A DNA stretch of 59,890 bases from Patescibacteria group bacterium UBA6033 (GTDB taxonomy: Bacteria > Patescibacteriota > Minisyncoccia > Phycocordibacterales > Phycocordibacteraceae). The DNA is taken from NCBI GenBank assembly GCA_002429325.1, contig DIZH01000012.1:47338-107227 (forward strand), written 5' to 3'. The stretch's first letter is position 1; each line of letters starts with the position of its first letter. Made by a program: the position numbers and the translations under genes. This document shows positions 2,553 through 52,995 of the stretch, piece by piece. The notes under the pieces were generated by a model. That model was not told the DNA's origin and made no database searches. It was given only the letters and a program-made list of their open reading frames with translations.

Positions 2553-3373
2553 GGCAGTGTCGAGGTAGCGAACGAGACTCCGGTAATGCCGGTCGCGCGT
2601 ACGACGACCGCGGCTATGGAGAATGGATTGACCGCAGAAACAATGCGCAAGGTCACCGCCGGCGACAATGGATCACTATCGACGCGTACAACGCCCCCGA
2701 CGGGCAGCTGGCCAGGACCTGGCATGAATACTGTATCCCCTACTGCAATGTTTGCCGCACGCGGGACCGAAGCATTCAGTGCCCCAGCGCCAGCACCTGT
2801 AAGCATGAGGGGGAGATTCGCATGTCCGACCCATCCATGTGTCACAACGCCCGGCGTAGAAAAAAGAGTTGCTTGCGAGAAGTCAGCGAGCACTGACGAT
2901 ATGACCCCGACAGGTACATTCCCAGGGCCGAAAACCTCCATACCAAGAGTGATGCCGCTCTTCGAACCTTCGCTAAGCACCAGCGTGTCATAGGGGCTCG
3001 TCGGCGGTCGAGCGGCAACGTCCGCGAGTATGCCGGGAGCATGCGCTCCGCCGCCTCCAAAAAGTGCATTCTGTGTATCGACTTTCTGCTGCAGTGCTGC
3101 ATTCTCACTCGCAAGCGTAGCGTTTTCATTCGTTAGCTTTTCATTTTGAGCCGCAAGTGTTGCAGCATTACTGAAGTGCGCAAAAAATGCTTGGCTTTCT
3201 GCAGTCAACGCATCTGCTATATGGAACACCGGCGTGAGTGCCTGCCAGAATAGGTTCGGAACAACAAGGCGAATACCGAGCAGCGCCATTGAAAATAGAA
3301 GTGCTCCCGCTCCCCACGAGATGCTCCGGGCCGTTATGAGCGCATTACGCCTCGCTAAGTATGTCTTCTTCAT
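2549..3373 (-). CDS. mreC: rod shape-determining protein MreC
   Basis: N-terminal TM segment, coiled-coil stretch (QNEKLTNENATLASENAALQQKV), Gly/Val-rich C-terminal beta domains; located between mreB and the MreD-like gene. Confidence 0.8.
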   Translation of the reverse strand: MKKTYLARRNALITARSISWGAGALLFSMALLGIRLVVPNLFWQALTPVFHIADALTAESQAFFAHFSNAATLAAQNEKLTNENATLASENAALQQKVDTQNALFGGGGAHAPGILADVAARPPTSPYDTLVLSEGSKSGITLGMEVFGPGNVPVGVISSVLADFSQATLFSTPGVVTHGWVGHANLPLMLTGAGAGALNASVPRAANIAVGDTVFMPGPGQLPVGGVVRVDSDPLSPAVTLRIVSAVNPFSIAAVVVRATGITGVSFATSTLP

Positions 3374-4397
3374 CTACAAAAAAATCTGCGTACGGCTCCG
3401 GGTTCTCCGTGACAATGCCCGCACCGCGTACAACTGCCGTAAGAGGATCAGGTGCCACACGCACTGGCACGCCCAGCATCTTCGCAAGTATTTCGGGAAG
3501 TCCCCGGAGGAGCGCGCCGCCGCCGAATACTGTGACGCCGTGTTCAAGCACATCAGAAAGAAGTTCGGCAGGAGTATTTTCTATTACCTCTTTCATCGCG
3601 TCCATGAGTGGATCAAGCGAAGGAGTGATGGCTTCGCGCACATGATTGTCGGTCAATATAATCTCCCGAGGCAGCCCCGTCGCAAAATCGCGGCCGCGCA
3701 CGCTCCGCGAAAGCGTCTCCGCAAGCGGCGTCACCGAACCGATGAGTATCTTCACATCCTCGGCCGTACGCTCGCCGATGCCGAGCTTAAATTCACTGCG
3801 CACATAGTCGATAATATTTTCATTGAAACGATCACCCGCGACATGCGAGCTTTTCGATGCGACGACTCCGTTCAGCGCAATGACAGCTATATCGGTCGTG
3901 CCGCCGCCGATATCGAGAACCATCGTCCCCACCGCATCAAAGACCGGGAGTTTCGCGCCGATAGCGCCAGCGACCGGCTCTTCAAGAATGATGGCTTCGC
4001 GCGCACCGGCGTTCTTGGCCGCATCGCGAACGGCACGGCTCTGCACATTGGTCACGCCCGTCGGCACGCCAATGACTACGCGCGGACCGAAGAGGCGCGC
4101 GCGGCCGTTCTGCGCTTTGTTGATGAGATAATTCAAGAGTTCTTCCGTCACTTCGAAATCCGAAATAACGCCGTGTTCCAAGGGGCGCACGACGCGCACA
4201 TGCGACGGCGTCTTGCCAAGCATCGTCTTCGCTTCCTTCCCCACCGCGACGACTTGATGTGTCTTGTCGTTCACCGCAACGACTGACGGCTCGTTTATCA
4301 CGACGCCCTTCCCGCGCACATACACAAGCGTGTTCGCTGTTCCAAGGTCAATCGCAATGTCGTTGCTGAAGAGGAGATTTCTGCTAAATCGTGCCAT
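3345..4397 (-). CDS. mreB: rod shape-determining protein MreB (actin-like ATPase)
   Basis: N-terminus FSNDIAIDLGTANTLVYV, phosphate-2 LDIGGGTTDIAVI, GGGALLRGL adenosine motif. Confidence 0.95.
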   Translation of the reverse strand: MARFSRNLLFSNDIAIDLGTANTLVYVRGKGVVINEPSVVAVNDKTHQVVAVGKEAKTMLGKTPSHVRVVRPLEHGVISDFEVTEELLNYLINKAQNGRARLFGPRVVIGVPTGVTNVQSRAVRDAAKNAGAREAIILEEPVAGAIGAKLPVFDAVGTMVLDIGGGTTDIAVIALNGVVASKSSHVAGDRFNENIIDYVRSEFKLGIGERTAEDVKILIGSVTPLAETLSRSVRGRDFATGLPREIILTDNHVREAITPSLDPLMDAMKEVIENTPAELLSDVLEHGVTVFGGGALLRGLPEILAKMLGVPVRVAPDPLTAVVRGAGIVTENPEPYADFFVDEEDILSEA

Positions 4398-15940: not shown

Positions 15941-15980
15941 AGGCAAAAGGAAACGCCGACCCAAGGGGTCGGCGTTTGCA
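15941..15980 (-). terminator. Rho-independent terminator closing the non-coding unit array
   Basis: Stem aaacgccgacc / gggtcggcgttt (15951-15977), followed on the minus strand by CCTTTTGCC. Confidence 0.7.
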
Positions 15981-16310
15981 GGAAAAGAACAGAGGCAATG
16001 TCGTAAGACAAATCGGATTTCGTTCTTCTCTGCAAAAGGGCTCTGTGAGAGTGACACCGCCTCACTCGTTATGGACAGTGGTATTCTCGTCAAACTCACA
16101 GAATTGGAATTGGTTGCGCGACACTCGTCTTTTCGTCTGGAGAGACAGATGTCGGTTCGTCGGCAACCAAAAGAGATGGTGGGGGACATGCGTCTCCTCG
16201 ATAGAAATCAATGAACAAATCGTCTCCCCACCTGAAACTGTCTCGACTGACCATGCCGAGCGGGAAAGGTGTACATGCACTGTAACGTCTCTAAAGACAG
16301 TTCCAGATTC
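15978..16310 (-). ncRNA. truncated third copy (unit 0) of the large structured non-coding unit; carries hairpins H6-H10 only
   Basis: Aligns with 16614-16910 and 18903-19200: same stems (ctgtgag/ctcacag, ggttgcgcgac/gtcggcaacc, ggtgggg/ccccacc) with different loops. Abuts unit A on one side and the terminator on the other. Confidence 0.6.
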
Positions 16311-16315
16311 GTCAT

Positions 16316-16965
16316 CACCCTCTTACAAAACACTTGAATAAACGTCCTGTAAGAGGGTGCCGACCACAGTGAGATAGATTTGAACCATCTCACGTGGTCG
16401 GCAGAGAGACAGACATTTCCTCACCCGAAGGCAGAACTTCCATCGTCTCTCGAAAAGGCGGTAATGGAAACAGGCTTAAGCTCGTTAAAGACACTTATCT
16501 TGTCGTCTCCATTACCTAAACTAGCAAAGAACACCCGCCAGCTGGCGGAGCAGCGAAACATCTTCATATTCGTCGTGAGACGCACTGGGAGTCGTCTCGC
16601 TGCGGAAAGAATTGCGGAAGGAAGACACACGTTCCCTCGAAAAAACTACTTGCGTTTTCGTCTTCTTCCGCAAAAAGGTTCTGTGAGAGTGATACCGCTG
16701 CACTCATCGCGATGACTATCGTCTTCTCGTCAAACTCACAGAATTGGATTTGGTTGCGCAACAAATGCGTTTTCGTCTCCTGAGAGACATTGGCTCCTAC
16801 GTCGGCAACCAAAAGGGGCGGTGGGGAGACATTCTCCTTTTCATGAAGACAGCCATGTACCTCGTCTCCCCACCTGAAACTATCTTGGCTAACCATGCCA
16901 AGCGGGAGGACATTTGGCGTTTCGTCATGCGACATGACACCTCTCGTCCTCGCAGGAGACAGTAA
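16316..16965 (-). ncRNA. large structured non-coding unit, copy A (about 650 nt, about 11 hairpins)
   Basis: No conserved reading frame. Hairpins H1 16318-16357, H2 16359-16402, H3 16404-16451, H4 16460-16516, H5 16550-16603, H6 16614-16671, H7 16679-16743, H8 16752-16810, H9 16820-16874, H10 16884-16902, H11 16924-16938. Stems conserved with copy B, loops not. Strand inferred from G.U/A.C asymmetry, promoters and terminators. Confidence 0.6.
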
Positions 16966-16987
16966 CACGCAAACATTATTTAGTCAA
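16959..16987 (-). promoter_or_regulatory. candidate promoter for unit A
   Basis: Minus strand: TTGACT (16982-16987), 17 nt, TACTGT (16959-16964); same distance from the conserved gtcatgtcgcatgac hairpin as the unit B promoter. Confidence 0.4.
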
Positions 16988-17019
16988 AAAGAAAAGCCCC
17001 GCATATTTCAGCGGGGCCG
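16985..17019 (-). terminator. Rho-independent terminator of the recombinase-like gene
   Basis: gccccgc atatttca gcggggc (16996-17017), followed on the minus strand by TTTTCTTTTT. Confidence 0.7.
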
Positions 17020-17075
17020 GTGGACAGGTCATCCAGCGTTCTTTCGAACAAGGGTTTAGTCGTCCACCTAAAAGA

Positions 17076-41945: not shown

Positions 41946-44900
41946 TTATTGTAGTTTCTGCTTTCGGCGGAAATAAATGTATAACGTTCCAAACAAGAGA
42001 ACTACGAGAGTGAGCAGGGTTGTCGGGAGATTAGTGTAGGAGAGAATAACCGCGGCTGGGCTTTTCTTCACATAGAACGTACTTACCACAGAAGGCTTCG
42101 ACTTGACCTTGCTTCCCGGATCGTAGGTGACCGCAAAGACTGTGTGTTCGCCCGGGGCAAGCTCCAAAACGCTCTGGTCGTGACTGAAACTCCACTGCCC
42201 CTTTTCGTCGGCATCGGTGGTGTAGACGACCACTTGGTCGGAGTGAATAAAGAGAGCGATCTTGGCTTTTGGAATACCGGTACCGGTGAAGTTGATCGTT
42301 TGTCCGGTTAGAGACTTCTCCACGAGAGCGACTTGCGGTTTAGCGAGGACACCGGACTCACGACTCTCCGCAAGACCTTTGAGTTCCGGAATATTTTGGA
42401 GAACTGAACTCTCTGTCGGCACAAAAGAACTGGCTATGCCTTGTCCTGAACCATTAGAAGTACCGGTGGTTGAATTTTCACTAGGCGCGTTTCCGGTATT
42501 ATTTACTTGACTATTTGTTTGCGGTGAGACCGTCGAGTTCGCCGGAGTGTTTTCATTTCTTGTTTGACTTTCATTTGTCGTGAGAGAAATAACGGGACCA
42601 TTTCCACCACCTCCGGAACTCCCACCGACAGAAACGCTCGTACCGCCCCCACCGCCTCCAGTTGATCCAGCTCCAGTATTCACTTCAACGCTCGGTACAT
42701 TTTCGCTTATAACTTCCGATGCAGAAATGGTAAGCGTTATGCTGTCAGAAACTGCCGCGCCACCAACACCAAAGCTGGTGTAGAACTTTGCATACACGGT
42801 GTATCTTCCGCTATCACATGAATCAAGGCCAGCACACAAATTCCAATTAGTGGTGGAGGCATAGTCCTGCAGACTTGCATCACTGAAGTCGCTCGTGTTT
42901 GAAATGAGCATGAGTGCAGTGTTGTCACCCCCGGTGAGCGTCAGTGTGACATTTTTATCCTCCGTACCGGATGCACCGCCATCAATAACAATCTTAAATC
43001 CTCCGGCAGGTACTGTAGGCGGAAGCGTGCTTGTGTCGGGCAATATCTCTCCTACAGTAACTCCACCGGAAATTTCCTCGCTTACCGTACCGGTGGGAGA
43101 TGTGTCTGGAGCCGTCACAACAACATTTTCAGAAACAACCGTAGTTTCAGCTTGGGTCCTATACGAAACAACTTGTGATGTCTGTTCGTGACCGTAGTCG
43201 TCATAGGCAGTGATTTTGGCGTAGTAGAGCGTATCCGCTACAAGCCCCGTGATCACGGTTCGGTCTGTACCGGCGAGCAAGAGATCACTGTCTCTTGACG
43301 GTCCCCAGAGACTGACGTTCGCAGAATTATTCACGGATCCGTTAGTAACATTTTCACTATTTGTGCTGTAGGTAATAATATAGCGGTCAAAGTTGCTATC
43401 ATCGGCCGGCGACCAGTGCCAGAGAATCTGATTTGTGTTTGACTCGACTCCCGCAAGCAGAGAAAGGCCAAGTGGCGCTCTGGTGTCTATACCAATCTCA
43501 GTCGTTGTCACGCCGGTATTTCCGTAGACATCGGTAGAAGTCAATCGTGCGGTGATTGTTCCCTCAAAATTTGGGAAGTCCTGATCGGCGTTCCATGAAA
43601 TCGTGCGTGCGCCGGTATTCACCTCTCCGATAGCACCACTTGCCGATGTTACCGGTACAACCCAGGTCAGACCATGATCAGATGAGAGAGCGAGAGCCAC
43701 TGCAACAGGATTGTTTGCATCACTTAACGTATATGAAAATGTTGCTGTACCACTGTCACTCGTTTGGCTCCCGACAAATGTGGATACGACCGGAGCTTTG
43801 GTGTCGATACGAACAGGATAAAACGTTTCTAACGGTCCTGTAATAAGCCCGTCGTTTGCGCGAAGTCGCACATAAACACTGCCAGCATAATTTGGCAGAT
43901 CAGCTTTCGCATTCCAAACAAAGGTATGTCCTGTGCCGGAGTCTCTGGCGATAAGTCCATTTGTGCCGTCATGATCGGTGTCGAAAGTTGCCACGGTCAT
44001 CACGCCTTCCTCACCCGCAAAGGCACCAGTAGTGGAATATTCGTAAATGGGGATTGAAACAAAATCATTATCAACATCCGTTGCTGTATAAATAATATCA
44101 ACGAAACCATCATCTGTTTTCTGAGTCGCTTCGGTTATGTTTAGTGTCGGAGCTTGATTTGAACACTGGAGATAGTTTGCGTTGATCTCTGCCAACGTAA
44201 GAGCTTCAAGAACGAATCCGGCCGAGACACATCCTATTGAAGTGGAAATATTGGACGGAGGAGCGATCACAATCGGAGTGGAAAGCGTTGCTGTCACTGC
44301 GCCATCAATATATAGTTTTAATGTTGTTCCATCGTAGACAAGGACGACAATGTGATCTCCGACGGCCACGTTCGCAGACGAACCTGACGAGGTATCAGGA
44401 TAAGACAGCGTTGTTGTCTGCAAATCAGTACCCGTTACGTTTACGACAAGTCCATTATTCGGCCCTTCAGAAATAGATAAGAGTCCTGGAATAGAATAGA
44501 GGGTGCGTCCGGGAGTACCGGTCGTTTCAGTTACGATATGCACTGAAAATGCGATCGGGGTTGCAACATTTGTATTTAGCGTAGTATCTGTAGTAAGGGA
44601 CGTGTCTACCGATGTTGTAGCAATGTCTGTTGTAACAGTGGTATCAAGGGAATTTGTCGTGTCTGTCACAACTGATGTATCGGTCATCGGAATGGTAGTT
44701 TCTGTGGTTCCTCCGGTTGAAGTGTCCGTGCCGACGGAGATAGAGTCGAGAACCGCAACGACAGTCGGGTCTGCTTCGGAAGTCACGACGGTTGTCGTTG
44801 TGGCCGTGGAAGTTTCTGGACTTGTAAAACTGGCGATTACCGAAGGCTGATCTTGATAGTCAGCGGTCAAAGAAAGGAGCGATACATCCTGGCTACAGTC

Positions 44901-45914
44901 ACTCTCAAACGTCGCTTTGAACATGAGTGTTCCCGCACCGGCCTGGGTGAGCGTAACGGGAAAATCAGAGATGTTGCTGTTAATCTCCGTCGCGGCATTC
45001 CCTTTATTCGTGCCGGCGTCTATCCAACCACTTCCATTCCAATACAGCCATGAGACGCCTCCGTCACCGGAAAGAGTGTAATAAATTTCTCCACCATTTT
45101 TATTTGCCGTTTCAGAAAATCCCGTCCATTTTACGAACGGTGTTACTACCAAAGGCGTGATTGTTTGAAGTGTTGCACTACATGAATTCGTTTGAGCGTA
45201 TGCGACTTGTGGTCTAAAAAGATTTCGTAGATTATCAAAAAGAAGCGGTCCAGGATCTGGTGCAGGCGGAGGAACGACGGGAGCTGGTTCTACTACGGGT
45301 GCTGGAGCCGGTTCAACCACTGGCGCAGGAGCAGGCTCGGTTACTGGTTCTGTGACGGGGATAGGTTCAGTGGTCGGAACTGGTTCCGTAGAGACAGGTT
45401 CTGATACAGGAACTGTTTCCGTGGCAGGTGCCGGTTCAACAGTTGGGGTTACAACTTGCGACGATTTGAATATGGCAGTACCGTCAGTGATTTGAATCTT
45501 CGTCGTATCGTAGTTATAAGCAAGTGGTGTATTAAAATCCCAGCTTGCTACGGCCGCATATGATTTGCCGGGGAAAAGTACTAGCCCGAAAAAACTTACC
45601 AGTATCCATACAAAAACAGAAAATGCCATTCCAGCTATTACAGAAAGAGATGCTATACGGCGGAGGCGATAAGTCCGAATTGAAGATGCGTCACTTCCGG
45701 CAAATTCTTTAGACGAGATAAAAGCGTACGCGGGAAGCGAAATGAGAATATTTGCAATCTCAAGTAACAACACATAGAAGCCGTAGAGAATTATCTTCGG
45801 TCCGGTTGTCTCAATAACCCTTAGCTTGTATTTATTGATGATTCCAGAAAAATGGAGCATCAAATTGAGCCACCGGCTTTTCAAACTAATTCTATTTTTC
45901 ATATTCATGTTCAT
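41946..45914 (-). CDS. giant (1322 aa) surface protein
   Basis: N-terminal TM hairpin, Pro/Thr/Glu/Val linker, LamG/concanavalin-like segment (HIVVLVYDGTTLKLYIDG), FN3-like segments (ILWHWSPADDSNFDRYIITYS), Gly-rich tract, Ig-like domain and C-terminal TM anchor. Confidence 0.85.
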   Translation of the reverse strand: MNMNMKNRISLKSRWLNLMLHFSGIINKYKLRVIETTGPKIILYGFYVLLLEIANILISLPAYAFISSKEFAGSDASSIRTYRLRRIASLSVIAGMAFSVFVWILVSFFGLVLFPGKSYAAVASWDFNTPLAYNYDTTKIQITDGTAIFKSSQVVTPTVEPAPATETVPVSEPVSTEPVPTTEPIPVTEPVTEPAPAPVVEPAPAPVVEPAPVVPPPAPDPGPLLFDNLRNLFRPQVAYAQTNSCSATLQTITPLVVTPFVKWTGFSETANKNGGEIYYTLSGDGGVSWLYWNGSGWIDAGTNKGNAATEINSNISDFPVTLTQAGAGTLMFKATFESDCSQDVSLLSLTADYQDQPSVIASFTSPETSTATTTTVVTSEADPTVVAVLDSISVGTDTSTGGTTETTIPMTDTSVVTDTTNSLDTTVTTDIATTSVDTSLTTDTTLNTNVATPIAFSVHIVTETTGTPGRTLYSIPGLLSISEGPNNGLVVNVTGTDLQTTTLSYPDTSSGSSANVAVGDHIVVLVYDGTTLKLYIDGAVTATLSTPIVIAPPSNISTSIGCVSAGFVLEALTLAEINANYLQCSNQAPTLNITEATQKTDDGFVDIIYTATDVDNDFVSIPIYEYSTTGAFAGEEGVMTVATFDTDHDGTNGLIARDSGTGHTFVWNAKADLPNYAGSVYVRLRANDGLITGPLETFYPVRIDTKAPVVSTFVGSQTSDSGTATFSYTLSDANNPVAVALALSSDHGLTWVVPVTSASGAIGEVNTGARTISWNADQDFPNFEGTITARLTSTDVYGNTGVTTTEIGIDTRAPLGLSLLAGVESNTNQILWHWSPADDSNFDRYIITYSTNSENVTNGSVNNSANVSLWGPSRDSDLLLAGTDRTVITGLVADTLYYAKITAYDDYGHEQTSQVVSYRTQAETTVVSENVVVTAPDTSPTGTVSEEISGGVTVGEILPDTSTLPPTVPAGGFKIVIDGGASGTEDKNVTLTLTGGDNTALMLISNTSDFSDASLQDYASTTNWNLCAGLDSCDSGRYTVYAKFYTSFGVGGAAVSDSITLTISASEVISENVPSVEVNTGAGSTGGGGGGTSVSVGGSSGGGGNGPVISLTTNESQTRNENTPANSTVSPQTNSQVNNTGNAPSENSTTGTSNGSGQGIASSFVPTESSVLQNIPELKGLAESRESGVLAKPQVALVEKSLTGQTINFTGTGIPKAKIALFIHSDQVVVYTTDADEKGQWSFSHDQSVLELAPGEHTVFAVTYDPGSKVKSKPSVVSTFYVKKSPAAVILSYTNLPTTLLTLVVLLFGTLYIYFRRKQKLQ

Positions 45915-47391: not shown

Positions 47392-47586
47392 TCATAATTG
47401 CTTAACTTTTCCTTCACCTGATACATCTTCTTTTGGATCGGCTTTGGCTTTAAGCTTCTGCTCATACTGATAATCCAGCGTCATAACAATAAGCTCGGCT
47501 AACCGGTCCGAAAATATCTCCTCGGCCTTTTGCAGGTCTATACTTTCTGGTAATTTTTTGAACTGGCGTTTCATTTTAGGCATCAA
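47392..47586 (-). CDS. small charged protein (64 aa), last ORF of the defence-like cassette
   Basis: Start overlaps the KAP NTPase stop by 11 nt; Lys/Glu-rich; no family recognised. Confidence 0.45.
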   Translation of the reverse strand: MMPKMKRQFKKLPESIDLQKAEEIFSDRLAELIVMTLDYQYEQKLKAKADPKEDVSGEGKVKQL

Positions 47587-50500
47587 TAACAGAGTTAGAA
47601 GCAGGAATCACAACAGAAGTTTGGGCTACCTTTGTGACTTCGGTAACGTTATCGTCTAAGACTTTATAAACCATGGGGACATATTTTTTATACGAAGCTT
47701 CATCGTTACCCACGAATACGACTTTTTCTTTATCCTCAAGTTTGAGGTTTTTGAAAGTTGTGCCGTGTTTCTGCCAAAAAATTGAAAGCTTCACCTTATC
47801 CAACACTTTGATAAATTCATTAATACTTGGTACATATTTCAATCCATCTTCTCGTGCAGAAGCAAATGCACTAGCAAAGTTTCTGAACAAGTAGTCAATG
47901 AAGTATTCCGTGTTTTTAGTTTCCTTTGGGTCAAAGCAGTGTTCAAAAAGATAATCGTTAACTAAGTCTCTGATGGTGTGCTTATCCTCCGTTCCGGTAG
48001 GATCATAAAATCCGCATCCGGCTCCGAGATTGATTTCTGCGTTCGCCATTTGGTACAGAATAAAAGCACCCACACGAGTTTTTAGCTCAACGGATTTCTT
48101 ATCTATGTCCGTAGCTTGGAATATGCCATCGGCAATCTTCTGCTTAAGAAAGTTGTCATATTTACCAACGAGATTGGATGTTTGTAGAGCGTCAATTTCT
48201 GCAAAGATATTTTTCTTTGGAAGAATGTATCTCGTATTAAATATCTCGAACACCCTTTGGGATATCTCACGCATCTCTTCACGAGCGATATCTCTTGTAG
48301 AACCTGCGGAGGGAGCGTTCTGATTTGCGTGTTCTGCAACGGCTCGAGATAAATCAAAGATGTCGCCTCCACGGTCTGCACTACAAGACAACCTAAAAAG
48401 TAGTAAGTCGTGGATTCCTAATACACCTCGATTTTCTTCTGAAAGTGTTGCGAGTACACCACTGTCTGCGTGTCTACCTTCGCCAAAAACCCATTCGGCA
48501 ATTTCAGCGATGTGGGGCTGAACATTATTTGAATGTTTACCTTGTGGATCAATCCATCCGGCATCGTTCAGTAGTCTGGTGAGGAAATAATCCAAATTGT
48601 GTCGCAATCCCATTCCTACATTTGGGTCTCCCATTTCAAGTAAGGAATACTCGGGTATTGTCTTCAAAAGATAGGTAATTATTTCTTTTGCAATATCACT
48701 TGGCAATTCTCGTGCGTTGTTCACCAATATACGCCACAGCTTTTCTCTCCTGTTCTCTCCCTCACTATATGCAAACTTTTCATCTGCAAACGCAGTATCA
48801 ATAGTGACTGTTTTATTAATTATTTTATCTCTCCATTGAGTATAAAATTTATGTTGATCAACATCGACAGGTTTTGAGAGGTTCACAATTAAATCCAAAT
48901 ACGTCTCAAGATTCCTGCCATTTGTCCAACCACCGTTAAAACAGGCGAGCGAAGTGCGCACATCGTCTGGGATTTTATCTATGTTAGCGTATTCGTTACC
49001 ATAGAGACTTTTTTTATCGGTCTTCAAGCGTACGTCCACATTAAATACTTGGTCTAAAAGAAAACGCTGAGGGGTGTCTTCAGTAAATTCCAGCTCTTTT
49101 AAGTAGTCGTGATAGTGGGTTGAATTCTTGTAGGAAGAATCAGAAGATGACGATCTTCCTCGTGTCCCTGTTTCATCTTTCGGATAACCTTCATCGTAAG
49201 GTATTACCAATGAGAAAAATCCTCTACCACCCTTTGTCTCAGTATCATAAATCTTTCTAAAGACGCTCGGGTAATGGATATAGATGAGCAAAAGATTTAC
49301 CAAGTCTCGTTTATTAAAATCACTACTTTGAAAGTCCGTGGACTGGAGGTCAAACATCATGACGGTATTGATGAGCCGTTTCAACTTTCTTACATCACCA
49401 ATAAAAGGGAGATACCTGTGATACATAGACGAGTCGTATATATCGAGTAGTCCACCAATTGCCTGGCGCACTGGCAAGGGATCGACAATACTCGTAGTGA
49501 GTGCACTCTCAAGATTCTCCGATACATAGTTCTTCAAGTCTTCTCTATCTAAGTACAAGCTGATTTTTATGTTCACAAACTTTTCTAAAAACTCACCAAC
49601 CTTTTCAACATCGGGAGAATCGGCTTCAAGTACGCCTATGTTCTCTGTGTCATAACAAATGACGTACGAAACATTCGGAAATGCAAAACTTTTTCTTATA
49701 ACAAACAGTATGTCTTTTATTTCTGCAAAACTGATTCGATCCAAGTCATCAATAACTATAATGACTTTCCTTGGAAATCGTTTTAGAACGGCACTCAAGT
49801 CGTCGAATGCCTCCTCGGCTGTATAGTCCACTACAAAGGTCGGGAGAGTAAAACCGAATAGCGAAAAACGTTTTATCTCTTTGAGTAAGCGAGTATAGCG
49901 AGATATTAAGGGTTTTATTTCAGGGATGAATGCATTCTTTTGAATGGCATGTATCAAGCCATCAATAAAGACCTCCAGCAAATTTGCCGATCCTAAATAT
50001 CGAAGTGGACTGAATTTATAAATTACCACCCCGTCTGTGTACTTCTCCTCCCAGTACTCGTTGCAGAAATTTATAAAAGTTGATTTACCTATTCCCCAAG
50101 GAGCATCAACCCCGAACACAAAGCTCTCTGGTGATCCTCCGTTGAATACACGCTCCGCAAATGCATTGGCTTTCCCCGTAAAGTTTAGTAGATCGTTATC
50201 TCTACTCTTGAGCTCGATATCAGTAACTAGGGAAGAATCAGTCTTCTTATCTTGCCAAAGCAACTGCCGTCCCATTACTAGAGTCCCCAAAATAAAAGGT
50301 CCGGAAAGGATAGTAAGTATCTGAGTGATGTTAACAGAGGAAACGATCTTTGAAATCCATATCGATAGAAAACCACCCCACGCAATACTGAGCCAGATTC
50401 CGAAGCAAAAGATGATTAGCACATCAATACGGCAACTTCGGATGATTTTCTTTGAGTCGGCAAATACTCCACGTGCCAGCAGGTATGCGACTAGAAACAA

Positions 50501-50713
50501 AGTGCCTACAACGCAAACTGCTGTTGCTTTATATTCATAGTCATTGGAAGAAATCCATCTGTTCAACTTGTAGGCGATGGCAAGTGATAAGCCCCAAATT
50601 TCCGCACTTAAAATACCTAAAAAGGCGGTTTTAACCAGCACCACTAGGTTTGCTGTTATTATCCTGAAGTCGGATAAGGATTCTTTGAATCTAATAGCAT
50701 GTTTGTTAAGCAT
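47576..50713 (-). CDS. KAP-family P-loop NTPase with an N-terminal transmembrane module (1045 aa)
   Basis: Walker A GVDAPWGIGKSTFINF (KAP-type WG.GKS), Walker B VIIVIDDLDR; 4-5 hydrophobic helices in the first ~150 aa; long unassigned C-terminal region. Confidence 0.8.
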   Translation of the reverse strand: MLNKHAIRFKESLSDFRIITANLVVLVKTAFLGILSAEIWGLSLAIAYKLNRWISSNDYEYKATAVCVVGTLFLVAYLLARGVFADSKKIIRSCRIDVLIIFCFGIWLSIAWGGFLSIWISKIVSSVNITQILTILSGPFILGTLVMGRQLLWQDKKTDSSLVTDIELKSRDNDLLNFTGKANAFAERVFNGGSPESFVFGVDAPWGIGKSTFINFCNEYWEEKYTDGVVIYKFSPLRYLGSANLLEVFIDGLIHAIQKNAFIPEIKPLISRYTRLLKEIKRFSLFGFTLPTFVVDYTAEEAFDDLSAVLKRFPRKVIIVIDDLDRISFAEIKDILFVIRKSFAFPNVSYVICYDTENIGVLEADSPDVEKVGEFLEKFVNIKISLYLDREDLKNYVSENLESALTTSIVDPLPVRQAIGGLLDIYDSSMYHRYLPFIGDVRKLKRLINTVMMFDLQSTDFQSSDFNKRDLVNLLLIYIHYPSVFRKIYDTETKGGRGFFSLVIPYDEGYPKDETGTRGRSSSSDSSYKNSTHYHDYLKELEFTEDTPQRFLLDQVFNVDVRLKTDKKSLYGNEYANIDKIPDDVRTSLACFNGGWTNGRNLETYLDLIVNLSKPVDVDQHKFYTQWRDKIINKTVTIDTAFADEKFAYSEGENRREKLWRILVNNARELPSDIAKEIITYLLKTIPEYSLLEMGDPNVGMGLRHNLDYFLTRLLNDAGWIDPQGKHSNNVQPHIAEIAEWVFGEGRHADSGVLATLSEENRGVLGIHDLLLFRLSCSADRGGDIFDLSRAVAEHANQNAPSAGSTRDIAREEMREISQRVFEIFNTRYILPKKNIFAEIDALQTSNLVGKYDNFLKQKIADGIFQATDIDKKSVELKTRVGAFILYQMANAEINLGAGCGFYDPTGTEDKHTIRDLVNDYLFEHCFDPKETKNTEYFIDYLFRNFASAFASAREDGLKYVPSINEFIKVLDKVKLSIFWQKHGTTFKNLKLEDKEKVVFVGNDEASYKKYVPMVYKVLDDNVTEVTKVAQTSVVIPASNSVIDA

Positions 50714-50727
50714 GTCTGGGCATCTAG

Positions 50728-52995
50728 TTATAGTTCCTTAACCGCCCTTAGCGTCTCTTCAACATTCCCGGTATGAACTAAGAAAAAGTGTAGTTTTCCT
50801 CCACCGAGCTTCGACCATATTTCTCCAATTTCTATTTTATAGGCTGTATCTTCGTTGCTGATCCGGTCCGCACCTTTCCACTCCAGAGCGATAATCTGAC
50901 CTTTCTTTGTGACCGCAATAAAATCAGGATAGAACTTACCTCGCTTCCATCCCTGAATATAAAACGGATCAACCTTTTCTCGGCTACGAACCCAATACTT
51001 AATGTTGGGGAGAGTGTCCAGATCGAGACGCTGGACGAAACTAAGCTCCTCACCATTGAGCTTATCTATCTTCTCGTAATAATTTCTATTGAATTCTTGT
51101 GGCACTGCCTGTTTGAGAGAGATCGTGTTAGGGAAAGCCTCAAATGGCTTCGTTGATATTTTCTTCTTTTGCAAAAGCGTATCAAAATTTTCCTTTGCAT
51201 ACTTTTCCAGAACCCCATTAATAAACTCGCTCATTCGATCAGCCAGCACGTAACGGTTTACAGACAGCTCGGACAATGTACGGGTTTTAAGCTGATACTC
51301 GATGGCTTTATCAAGAAAACTCACCTTGTCTGACTTTTCGAGTAATGGAAAACGTAGCTTTTTATCAAGCCACTGCACCAGCTCACTTTTTGTGTAGTTT
51401 TTATCGGAGTACCGTAGCTTCAAGTACATCTGGGCTCCACGCATCCACTCATCGTCCTTCTGGATATCAATAATTGCTCGGCCGTCATTATCGTAATGGA
51501 TTTGGAACTCGAATTTATGATCTTGTTTAGCAAGCTCGAAGTCGTTTCCAATCAAGTCTTCAAAAGATAACTGATCACCCTCGAGGGCCATCATTGGCAC
51601 CTTGAGAACGTCTGATACGGCCTTTTTAGCTTCGAGCTCGTAAGTCGCATCTTTCTTGTCGCTACTGACAAGATCAGACCTGCTGTATCCATTGCTTTCA
51701 AGTCCGGAAATGATTTGACCGGCCGCTTCGTTAAAGTCTCTTGCCGAAGCAAAGACATAGCTCCTGTTAAAGTCCTCATCGGCTTTTCTTTTTGCATAAG
51801 GCAAACGAATGATGCGTCCGATAATCTGCTCGACGGCAATTTTTGATCCGAGGTTGGCAACCGAAACAAGGATATAAGCGAAAGAACAGTCCCATCCTTC
51901 TGCTAAAGCATTGACGGTAATGATGTAACGAATTTTGCAACTCTTACTAAAGAGATCAACTCCCTCAAGTTCGTTTTTCTCGGAAGTTTTGATCGCAATT
52001 TCATCGGCTGAAATCTTTCGCTCTAGTAAGAAGTCTTTTAGATGTTCGACGGTAACAGTGTGACCGTCCTTGCTCTTAGGCTGTGCCTGCAATAGAGCAA
52101 TTGGACGGATATATTCTCCTTTAATTTTCTTAGCGTCTTTCTCAAGCTCAATCCTTTTCTCAATTCCTCTAGTAACTGAATTCTGCCATTGAGCAGAACT
52201 CTCAAGTACGATAGGAATTTTCACCATCTGCTCATCCTTGAGCTCTGAAGCATGAATCTCAACCAGAATGTTGCTCTCACTGCGTGGTGTTGCAGTATAT
52301 TCAACAATAAAGCTTGGGTTGAGGTCTTTCAGGAAATCGATTGATAGCTTGGTTGTTGTTTTATGGCCTTCATCAATCACTATAAGTGGATTACTTAACC
52401 GAACAACGTTTGCCAGTGAGTTAATTACCGATCCTTCACTATCACGCTCAAGATAATCCGGCTCATCTATGTGCTCAAAGTGAGCTAGGAGGGTACCGTT
52501 TTCTTGATACACCTTGTACTTGTTTTGGAGAGATTTTTCTTTGCGGAACGCCTCGAGACTAGCAATGACGATACAGAGATTATCGTTTACATCTTCTTTA
52601 CGAATACTCAAAGCTTCCTCGTTGGAAAATACCTTTACGTTGTTATCAAACGCTTCATCAAGAACCCTACGATGCCAATCTTTCCGGTCCTTAAATTTCT
52701 TGAGGGTCTGAGTTTTGATTGCTTCCGAAGGTGTAAACCAAAGCACAATTCCACGATCCATTTTGTGTTGTAGCAGGCCGGACATAATCTTCTCAACGGC
52801 ATGACAACCTACGAGCGTCTTTCCACCACCAGTTGGGATTTTAATACAAACAAAAGGAACCTCACCAAACGCCTCGGCGTGATAAGGCTTTTCAGTAATG
52901 CCCATGAAAGCATACTTGAGGCCAGCCTTACGCAATTCCTTCAAGAATTGTTCGAGCGTTTCTAATGTATTTTTTTGGTATTTTTTAAGTTCCAT
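50728..52995 (-). CDS. res: type III restriction enzyme Res subunit (SF2 helicase plus PD-(D/E)xK nuclease)
   Basis: Motif I IPTGGGKT, motif II VIDEGH, helicase C-terminal motifs, C-terminal YPDFIAV...ALEWKG nuclease motif; directly downstream of mod. Confidence 0.85.
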   Translation of the reverse strand: MELKKYQKNTLETLEQFLKELRKAGLKYAFMGITEKPYHAEAFGEVPFVCIKIPTGGGKTLVGCHAVEKIMSGLLQHKMDRGIVLWFTPSEAIKTQTLKKFKDRKDWHRRVLDEAFDNNVKVFSNEEALSIRKEDVNDNLCIVIASLEAFRKEKSLQNKYKVYQENGTLLAHFEHIDEPDYLERDSEGSVINSLANVVRLSNPLIVIDEGHKTTTKLSIDFLKDLNPSFIVEYTATPRSESNILVEIHASELKDEQMVKIPIVLESSAQWQNSVTRGIEKRIELEKDAKKIKGEYIRPIALLQAQPKSKDGHTVTVEHLKDFLLERKISADEIAIKTSEKNELEGVDLFSKSCKIRYIITVNALAEGWDCSFAYILVSVANLGSKIAVEQIIGRIIRLPYAKRKADEDFNRSYVFASARDFNEAAGQIISGLESNGYSRSDLVSSDKKDATYELEAKKAVSDVLKVPMMALEGDQLSFEDLIGNDFELAKQDHKFEFQIHYDNDGRAIIDIQKDDEWMRGAQMYLKLRYSDKNYTKSELVQWLDKKLRFPLLEKSDKVSFLDKAIEYQLKTRTLSELSVNRYVLADRMSEFINGVLEKYAKENFDTLLQKKKISTKPFEAFPNTISLKQAVPQEFNRNYYEKIDKLNGEELSFVQRLDLDTLPNIKYWVRSREKVDPFYIQGWKRGKFYPDFIAVTKKGQIIALEWKGADRISNEDTAYKIEIGEIWSKLGGGKLHFFLVHTGNVEETLRAVKEL

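Follow-up and report, generated by a model that had tools for sequence, protein, structure and literature searches.

Stem-loop TIGR arrays were described by Faure et al. 2025 (PMC12045711), and the same paper reports that TasR shares its architecture of RuvC, coiled-coil, and RNA-binding domains with IS110, and that TasR and TasH of the dual-repeat type have nuclease activity. Xu et al. 2026 (bioRxiv 10.64898/2026.09.09.750476) described a CPR clade of large TasR proteins with dead RuvC domains; in these systems, arrays flank tas on both sides, a hairpin occupies the loop between the spacers, and CUU is found at the stem bases. Two stem-loop TasR proteins, CsTasR from the CPR clade and PateTasR, bound DNA but did not cut it, and in a reporter assay transcription was repressed by CsTasR and also by MbTasA, which lacks a nuclease (bioRxiv 10.64898/2026.09.09.750476).

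The window analyzed here is a stretch of 59,890 nucleotides (60 kb), in which the minus strand between 15940 and 19300 carries a single gene for a 482-aa protein (17076-18524), with 23 hairpins on both sides of it. As far as sequence can tell, the locus has the defining features of the stem-loop TIGR-Tas family, with CUU at the stem base in only some of the units. We put the probability at about 90% that it is a stem-loop TIGR-Tas system on a Parcubacteria-type (CPR/Patescibacteria) chromosome, the TasR of which is most likely a nuclease-dead, RNA-guided, DNA-binding repressor. Both the architecture and the likely repressor function are already published, and the locus is a further example rather than a new system. 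Its closest counterparts are the stem-loop TIGR arrays with CPR-clade TasR, such as those from Candidatus Staskawiczbacteria (CsTasR) and from Buchananbacteria RIFCSPHIGHO2_02_FULL_56_16. In all of them the host is a CPR bacterium, the arrays flank tas and run in its orientation, and the hairpins follow one another in tandem, each with a palindromic stem of its own; box C and box D frame both of the 9-nt spacers and pair with each other at the stem side as well as at the loop side, and a small hairpin lies between the spacers. The TasR is large in each case, and its N-terminal RuvC-like domain is without catalytic residues, in the window protein as predicted from alignment. CUU, reported at the stem bases of the published systems, stands at some of those in the window. 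The differences are that the window Tas is only about 30-33% identical to the CPR examples, that the loop hairpins are 2-5 bp or absent, compared with 5 bp in CsTasR, and that the window system is known from its sequence alone.

Each hairpin, read on the minus strand, runs stem-CGA-N9-UG-short loop or mini-hairpin-CGA-N9-UG-stem, and 23/23 units parse in this way. Box C is CGA and box D is UG, and two 9-nt spacers lie around a small linker; written with the spacer lengths seen in the window, a unit is CGA-N9(10)-UG ... CGA-N9-UG. [quoted passage not shown] This pair forms the shared GAC/GUC "cap" that the earlier note had recognized, which reads GA-CGA ... UG-UC on the minus strand. The cap is real: ACGA-N9-TGT occurs 34 times in the window compared with 7.5 expected, 0/100 shuffles reach 34, and 23 of the 34 occurrences are on the minus strand between 15989 and 19217. 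Units measure 46-68 nt, each with a stem of its own, and a constant edge repeat is absent. Departures from the consensus are found in A-T4, A-T5, and A-T6, where box D is AG, TA, or CG, and in four units where box C' is UGA. CUU stands at the stem base of 10/23 window units; in relatives it does so in 145/542, compared with 96/542 random 12-mers. The orientation of the motif and its family-wide co-orientation with tas place the RNA on the minus strand, the same as the gene; G-U and A-C pairs in the window stems number 7 and 4, a count too close to decide the RNA strand.

Array B lies upstream of tas, a single unit (T12) follows the stop codon, and arrays A and 0 lie downstream, all on the minus strand. 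Arrays B and A each consist of T1-T8 and T11, and array 0 consists of T2-T5, which with T12 gives the total of 23. All were assigned by parsing with the above grammar, and a search for hairpins closed by GAC...GTC recovered the modules of the earlier note, B-T6 and B-T8 among them, and T12. Array B begins downstream of a promoter-like site (19251-19278, TTGCTA-16-TATTAT with a TG extension), the motif of which is kept in a syntenic ortholog of the locus, L082. It comprises B-T1 (19198-19243), an atypical unit in that conservation between arrays A and B extends into spacer A, over its 3' half; B-T2 (19108-19166), with spacers ttgcggggg and taagaaaaa; B-T3 (19043-19098); B-T4 (18974-19034); B-T5 (18901-18968); B-T6 (18836-18894); B-T7 (18760-18816), whose stem covaries across orthologs; B-T8 (18702-18751); and B-T11 (18587-18636), directly upstream of the tas start. 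The tas gene (17076-18524), predicted to encode a CPR-clade TasR of 482 aa, starts with GTG 6 nt after AAGGAG; in the JGI call the start is a TTG 27 nt further upstream, at 18551. T12 (17019-17068) begins 8 nt after the tas stop, and L082 and two further related loci, L087 and L088, have an orthologous unit whose spacers differ. A hairpin resembling an intrinsic terminator (16995-17018) follows tas and T12. Array A (16268-16951), which has a folding z-score of -5.5 relative to shuffles, holds T1 (16906-16951), T2 (16820-16874), T3 (16752-16810), T4 (16679-16743), T5 (16612-16673), T6 (16550-16603), T7 (16460-16516), T8 (16404-16451), and T11 (16268-16319). Array 0 (15976-16232) is a partial duplicate of T2-T5, made up of T2 (16178-16232), T3 (16112-16168), T4 (16041-16103), and T5 (15976-16035), and a second intrinsic-terminator-like hairpin (15951-15977) ends it.

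The earlier note had placed seven hairpin modules with hypervariable, spacer-length loops at 16404-16874, and the hairpins are there, as A-T8 to A-T2. Seven modules per unit are indeed present, and the count was incomplete: T1 and T11 of arrays A and B, and T12 at 17019-17068, also fit, to make 23. With GAC/GTC taken as the closing pairs, the loop lengths that it gave are reproduced, at 34 nt (16404-16451) and 36 nt (18702-18751) for its H3, our T8, and at 33 nt (16820-16874) and 37 nt (19112-19162) for its H9, our T2. The variability holds for the spacers and not for the loop throughout: the internal UG...CGA motif had been overlooked, and each loop is spacer A-UG-short loop or mini-hairpin-CGA-spacer B. 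Its suggestion that the loops are programmable guides is likewise supported, by the match to a stem-loop TIGR array (PMC12045711, section 9; bioRxiv 10.64898/2026.09.09.750476) and by the Tas protein model, the score for which exceeds its cutoff; the guide is two 9-nt spacers, however, and not one of about 35 nt. The organization as hairpins instead of a direct-repeat array, also remarked upon there, agrees with the published form of stem-loop TIGR arrays.

Several other elements lie among the units. A plain 6-bp hairpin without spacers (CUCGGC-N7-GCCGAG) is found between T1 and T2, on the minus strand at 19176-19194, 16884-16902, and 16242-16260; there are compensatory changes between the copies, with CUUGGC/GCCAAG in array A and CUCGGC/GUCGAG in array 0. 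Between T8 and M10 there is another plain hairpin, GCCGAC...GUCGGC, the interior of which varies. The M10 hairpin (CACCCUCUUACAGGACGUUUAUUCAAGUGUUUUGUAAGAGGGUG plus flank; repeat family D6) is 49 nt long and 100% identical in arrays A (16316-16364) and B (18636-18684, minus strand); it has a single CGU-N9-UG and so amounts to a half-unit. The M10 stem is kept in L082 and L087, the Tas proteins of which are 76-89% identical, and M10 may be one more element of the array, or else a site for processing or regulation. Within the tas coding sequence, 25 nt (17953-17977; repeat family D7) are 72-80% identical to the 3' part of M10 (16342-16366 and 18662-18686); this similarity could be due to chance or could mark a site at which M10 RNA pairs with tas mRNA. 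The JGI gene call also contains a 123-aa hypothetical protein (L001 4617-4988) wholly within array A, which corresponds to a window ORF of 134 aa (16564-16968, minus strand) and is most likely a spurious call.

Homologues of the window protein range from 89% down to about 25% identity, and all are from metagenomes or MAGs. Every record that names a candidate phylum names Patescibacteria/CPR; a few TPA_asm co-assembly records are labelled Bdellovibrionales or Gammaproteobacteria. We searched 88 related loci (577 kb) with a strict finder (CG-N-N9-TG ... CG-N-N9-TG, outer stem of at least 6 pairs), which returned 565 units in the orientation of tas and 2 in the reverse orientation. The cap is thus retained in homologues, and the units always adjoin a Tas gene. 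Among 542 non-redundant units, the positions that the finder does not dictate, namely A before CG, A after CG, and U after UG, carry about 1 bit each, and both the stem side and the loop side show a conserved A-CGA and UG-U. Conservation of the loops across relatives was looked for as well, and it amounts to 0.0-0.1 bit per spacer position; 537/542 spacer pairs are unique. The CGA-N9-UG grammar is found at a Staskawiczbacteria locus and also at L060, which is the Buchananbacteria RIFCSPHIGHO2_02_FULL_56_16 scaffold_15087 locus, named by Faure et al. as having a TasR with an inactivated RuvC (PMC12045711). While the main text of that paper cites L060, its scaffold name and our contig identifier are absent from the text supplementary files.

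The JGI contig for the locus is 3300013427 Ga0120106_1000024 (194 kb). The window includes the housekeeping genes PBP2, MreB, and ProRS, and its ProRS has 80-85% identity with proteins of Kaiserbacteria and Paceibacterota; together, these identify the host replicon as a Parcubacteria-type chromosome. In L082 the same response-regulator gene lies upstream. Elsewhere in the window are three adjacent large ORFs on the minus strand (41946-45914, 47576-50713, and 50728-52995; 1322, 1045, and 755 aa), which may be a defence or surface-protein island; the 1322- and 1045-aa ORFs have no NCBIfam match, and the 755-aa ORF has a weak match to the BPTD_3080-family restriction endonuclease (E 7e-10), far below cutoff. 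Two 350-aa ORFs (3234-4286, plus strand, and 3345-4397, minus strand) overlap almost completely on opposite strands, and it is likely that at most one of them is real.

Stems are conserved while spacers turn over rapidly. In the window a block has been duplicated to give B, A, and 0, recurring about every 640 nt. Among these paralogous arrays the stems are 84.5% identical and the spacers 33.7%, compared with a random expectation of 26%; the lower stems differ from module to module, as had been observed before, and, like the linkers, are kept among the three copies. The syntenic ortholog L082, with a Tas 89% identical to that of the window, gave 83% identity for stems, 76% for linkers, 44% for loops, and 35% for spacers. 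The comparison of orthologous loci proposed in the earlier note therefore shows that the variable segments do turn over faster than the stems. Stem covariation was evident in eight orthologous T7-type units, with compensatory changes in 9/13 pairs. The spacers of A-T4 and 0-T4 are identical at 6/9 and 7/9 positions, which suggests that point-mutational divergence also occurs.

The super-repeats of related loci bear on how spacers change. In L087 (2552-3900), four tandem 347-nt blocks have scaffolds that are 93-99% identical and spacers at random-level identity. Two of these blocks have a scaffold identity of 240/243 (99%), and three of their four units have random-level spacers (17/54), whereas the fourth (GGGTGGTGTGGA...) is identical, spacers included. 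To the extent that sequence comparison can separate the two, this two-class pattern suggests that discrete, spacer-targeted replacement or hypermutation is a better fit than drift. L009 and L060 have similar super-repeats, with a duplicated unit at 1848 and 2147 in L009. We suggest, tentatively and as the less probable reading, that the arrays record the gain of guides, in that multi-unit blocks duplicate and their spacers are then replaced far faster than the surroundings. Both TIGR papers list spacer acquisition by arrays and the natural targets of spacers as open (PMC12045711; bioRxiv 10.64898/2026.09.09.750476). Two loci from different MAGs, L002 (4850-4905 and 5045-5107) and L003 (4885-4940 and 5213-5274), have two tigRNA units in common, with spacers that are identical (atgtggatt / ataggtgaa) or nearly identical. 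Some guides have thus been retained in more than one species, as would fit targets that are themselves conserved, possibly host ones.

The 482-aa gene product is, by its sequence signatures, a Tas protein that is related to IS110 and is not a recombinase. The NCBIfam model TIGR_Tas_endo (NF052498) matched it with 116.4 bits, above the curated cutoff of 100, over profile positions 4-215 of 215; the NCBIfam IS110 transposase model NF033542 gave 39.4 bits against a cutoff of 140 and fails. The description of the neighboring gene as a recombinase in the earlier note, which is explained by the fact that Pfam sees only the IS110-type Transposase_20 domain, is therefore to be abandoned. The top PDB sequence match was 9MTY (E 2e-7), which is TaTasR (Xu et al., bioRxiv 10.64898/2026.09.09.750476). 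An AF2 model (pLDDT 84.7) has a full-length likeness to IS621 and ISCro4, and a Foldseek search of the PDB with this model identified these two bridge recombinases, and not Tas structures, as the top matches. The modeled likeness to IS110-type proteins fits the published similarity of TasR to IS110 and is not a direct structural confirmation of Tas.

RuvC catalytic positions were mapped by motif alignment and by the published CsTasR numbering, not by structural superposition. The N-terminal strand reads IVAIS-YRDK in the window protein and IGI(R/Q/K/V)HR in relatives; IS110 proteins have IGID at the corresponding strand. The first catalytic position is thus occupied by Ser here, and by R, Q, K, V, A, or L in relatives. 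A strand that lacks the first Asp matches what was reported for CsTasR, in which R8 occupies this position (Xu et al., bioRxiv 10.64898/2026.09.09.750476). The fourth strand, which would carry the second acidic residue, is followed by an invariant GGSG, in a hydrophobic-GGSG stretch. The column aligned with the catalytic serine of IS621 (S241) contains Ser in only 10/24 family sequences. Within the RuvC-like domain, the C-terminal part has a conserved D160 and H161. This TasR belongs to a subclade that differs from the CPR examples in that its RuvC insertion is shorter and GGSG(A/S/Q) stands where they have GGSGD. Given that Asp is absent from the first position and that the second falls at the invariant GGSG, we read the protein as a nuclease-dead binder, with a RuvC domain that most likely no longer cleaves.

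That a TIGR-Tas system should instead retain an active nuclease, and defend the cell by cleaving invading DNA rather than by repression, seems unlikely on these grounds. The serine at the first catalytic position (R, Q, K, V, A, or L in relatives) and the location of the second within an invariant hydrophobic-GGSG stretch argue against it; the conserved D160 and H161 would speak for it. Dual-repeat TasR and TasH cut DNA (PMC12045711); the two stem-loop TasR proteins studied, including CsTasR of the same CPR clade, gave no cleavage, and repression was found (bioRxiv 10.64898/2026.09.09.750476). Fast spacer turnover, as would be expected of an arms race, and a restriction-endonuclease-like gene 32 kb away would both agree with cleavage.

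Far less probable is an insertion sequence of the IS110 family, whose hairpins would together form an unusually large multi-loop bridge RNA for a recombinase, a reading near to the recombinase gene of the earlier note. The Transposase_20 match, the IS621 and ISCro4 bridge recombinases as best structural matches, and the bipartite guides that bridge-RNA loops also contain are all as this explanation would have it, and the window locus does share with IS110/IS621 the homologous RuvC-like, coiled-coil, and RNA-binding domains and bipartite guide loops that pair with both DNA strands. The Tas model, and not the IS110 model, passes its cutoff, however, and neither the first aspartate of the DEDD set nor a conserved serine at the S241 column is present. 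Moreover, the RNA component is 23 independent, single-loop, dual-spacer hairpins on both sides of the gene, in contrast to a single bridge RNA that has one loop for the target and one for the donor. Synteny with L082, including the upstream response-regulator gene, fits a fixed chromosomal gene and not a mobile one, and no second copy of tas was found in the 60-kb window.

Targets were sought for the guides of the stem-loop TIGR-Tas system that we favor. Composite 18-bp targets were built for the 23 units in two geometries, spB+rc(spA) and rc(spA)+spB; for B-T8, the first of these gives 5'-CCTTCGAAT+TGGTTCCTT-3'. The published TIGR statements combine to spB followed by rc(spA), and section 7 of the same paper places the cut 3' of the nucleotide concerned; since that cut position gives no 8-nt 3' overhang, both geometries were tested. 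The best matches of the 23 units in the 60-kb window were 14-15/18, equal to those of shuffled spacers. When 565 units were compared with the flanks in 84 loci, there was one own-locus match at 16/18 compared with 33 in other loci, which is chance level. The sequences flanking the locus, where the earlier note had proposed to look for spacer matches, thus contain none above chance. By a rough estimate, exact 18-mer matches in viral and metagenome collections would number several per query by chance alone, and Xu et al. raise the same point about false positives in target searches (bioRxiv 10.64898/2026.09.09.750476). Least probable of all is that the hairpins are a structured noncoding RNA or DNA inverted repeats (REP-, MITE-, or attC-like) with unconstrained loops that guide nothing, since this would accommodate the strong folding, an Rfam scan of the whole window without a match at gathering thresholds, and the lack of targets, but not the exact 9-nt CGA-UG spacing on both sides in hundreds of units with proteins down to 25% identity, the 565-to-2 co-orientation with tas, which argues against symmetric DNA repeats, or the constant presence of a Tas gene beside the units.

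Three further kinds of RNA-guided system resemble the locus in part. With dual-repeat TIGR systems (TaTasR, SpTasH, and FpTasA) it shares the order box C-spacer A-box D ... box C-spacer B-box D, the 9-nt spacers, and a Tas effector with a Nop domain; it has neither the constant edge and loop repeats of 8-12 nt nor the uniform 36-nt unit, each unit has its own stem, and the effector is predicted to be nuclease-dead. A dual-repeat TIGR array was rejected because the constant edge repeat is missing and the units are 46-68 nt. Archaeal and eukaryotic box C/D s(no)RNAs with Nop5/Nop56/58 have the same general plan, stem-C-guide-D'-loop-C'-guide-D-stem, and a dimeric Nop-domain protein; the boxes here are CGA and UG rather than RUGAUGA and CUGA, there is no k-turn and no fibrillarin or L7Ae partner, and the target, by analogy with other TIGR systems, would be DNA instead of RNA. 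A box C/D sRNA was rejected on account of the CGA and UG boxes and zero Rfam matches. CRISPR arrays likewise have many short, variable guides in one transcript and an adjoining effector gene, but the window locus has no direct repeats of 25-36 nt, its guides are split (9+9 nt), and there are no cas genes and no known adaptation module. A CRISPR array was rejected because a direct-repeat search of the window turned up only the paralogous array copies and because the JGI gene calls, with their Pfam matches, show no cas-like gene for about 3 kb to either side of tas.

By analogy with the characterized relatives, we infer expression, processing, DNA binding, and repression at the locus as follows. 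A first minus-strand transcript would start at the promoter-like site at about 19278, run through array B (T1-T8, the two plain hairpins, and T11), tas, and T12, and end in the terminator-like hairpin at 17018-16995; a second, also from the minus strand, would cover arrays A and 0 and stop at the other such hairpin (15977-15951). Every one of the 23 hairpins would give one tigRNA, with the unit-specific stem closing on the box C/box D pair. As in relatives, one hairpin would be bound per TasR dimer, one protomer at the stem-side C/D pair and the other at the loop-side pair, and the two spacers would pair with opposite strands of adjacent 9+9 bp of DNA, an 18-bp target thus being set by each hairpin. 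If the RuvC domain is dead, the probable outcome would be binding, as shown for CsTasR and PateTasR, and transcriptional repression, as shown for CsTasR.

Reading of the raw sequence alone recovered a TIGR-Tas locus of a kind whose arrays repeat finders miss, because they have no direct repeats and no Rfam model. The locus is one more chromosomal example, well resolved and with 23 guides, in a Parcubacteria genome. Its paralogous arrays, with common stems and different spacers, are a natural comparison for guide turnover, and if a dedicated mechanism for rewriting spacers exists, paralogous blocks such as these would be the place to look for it.
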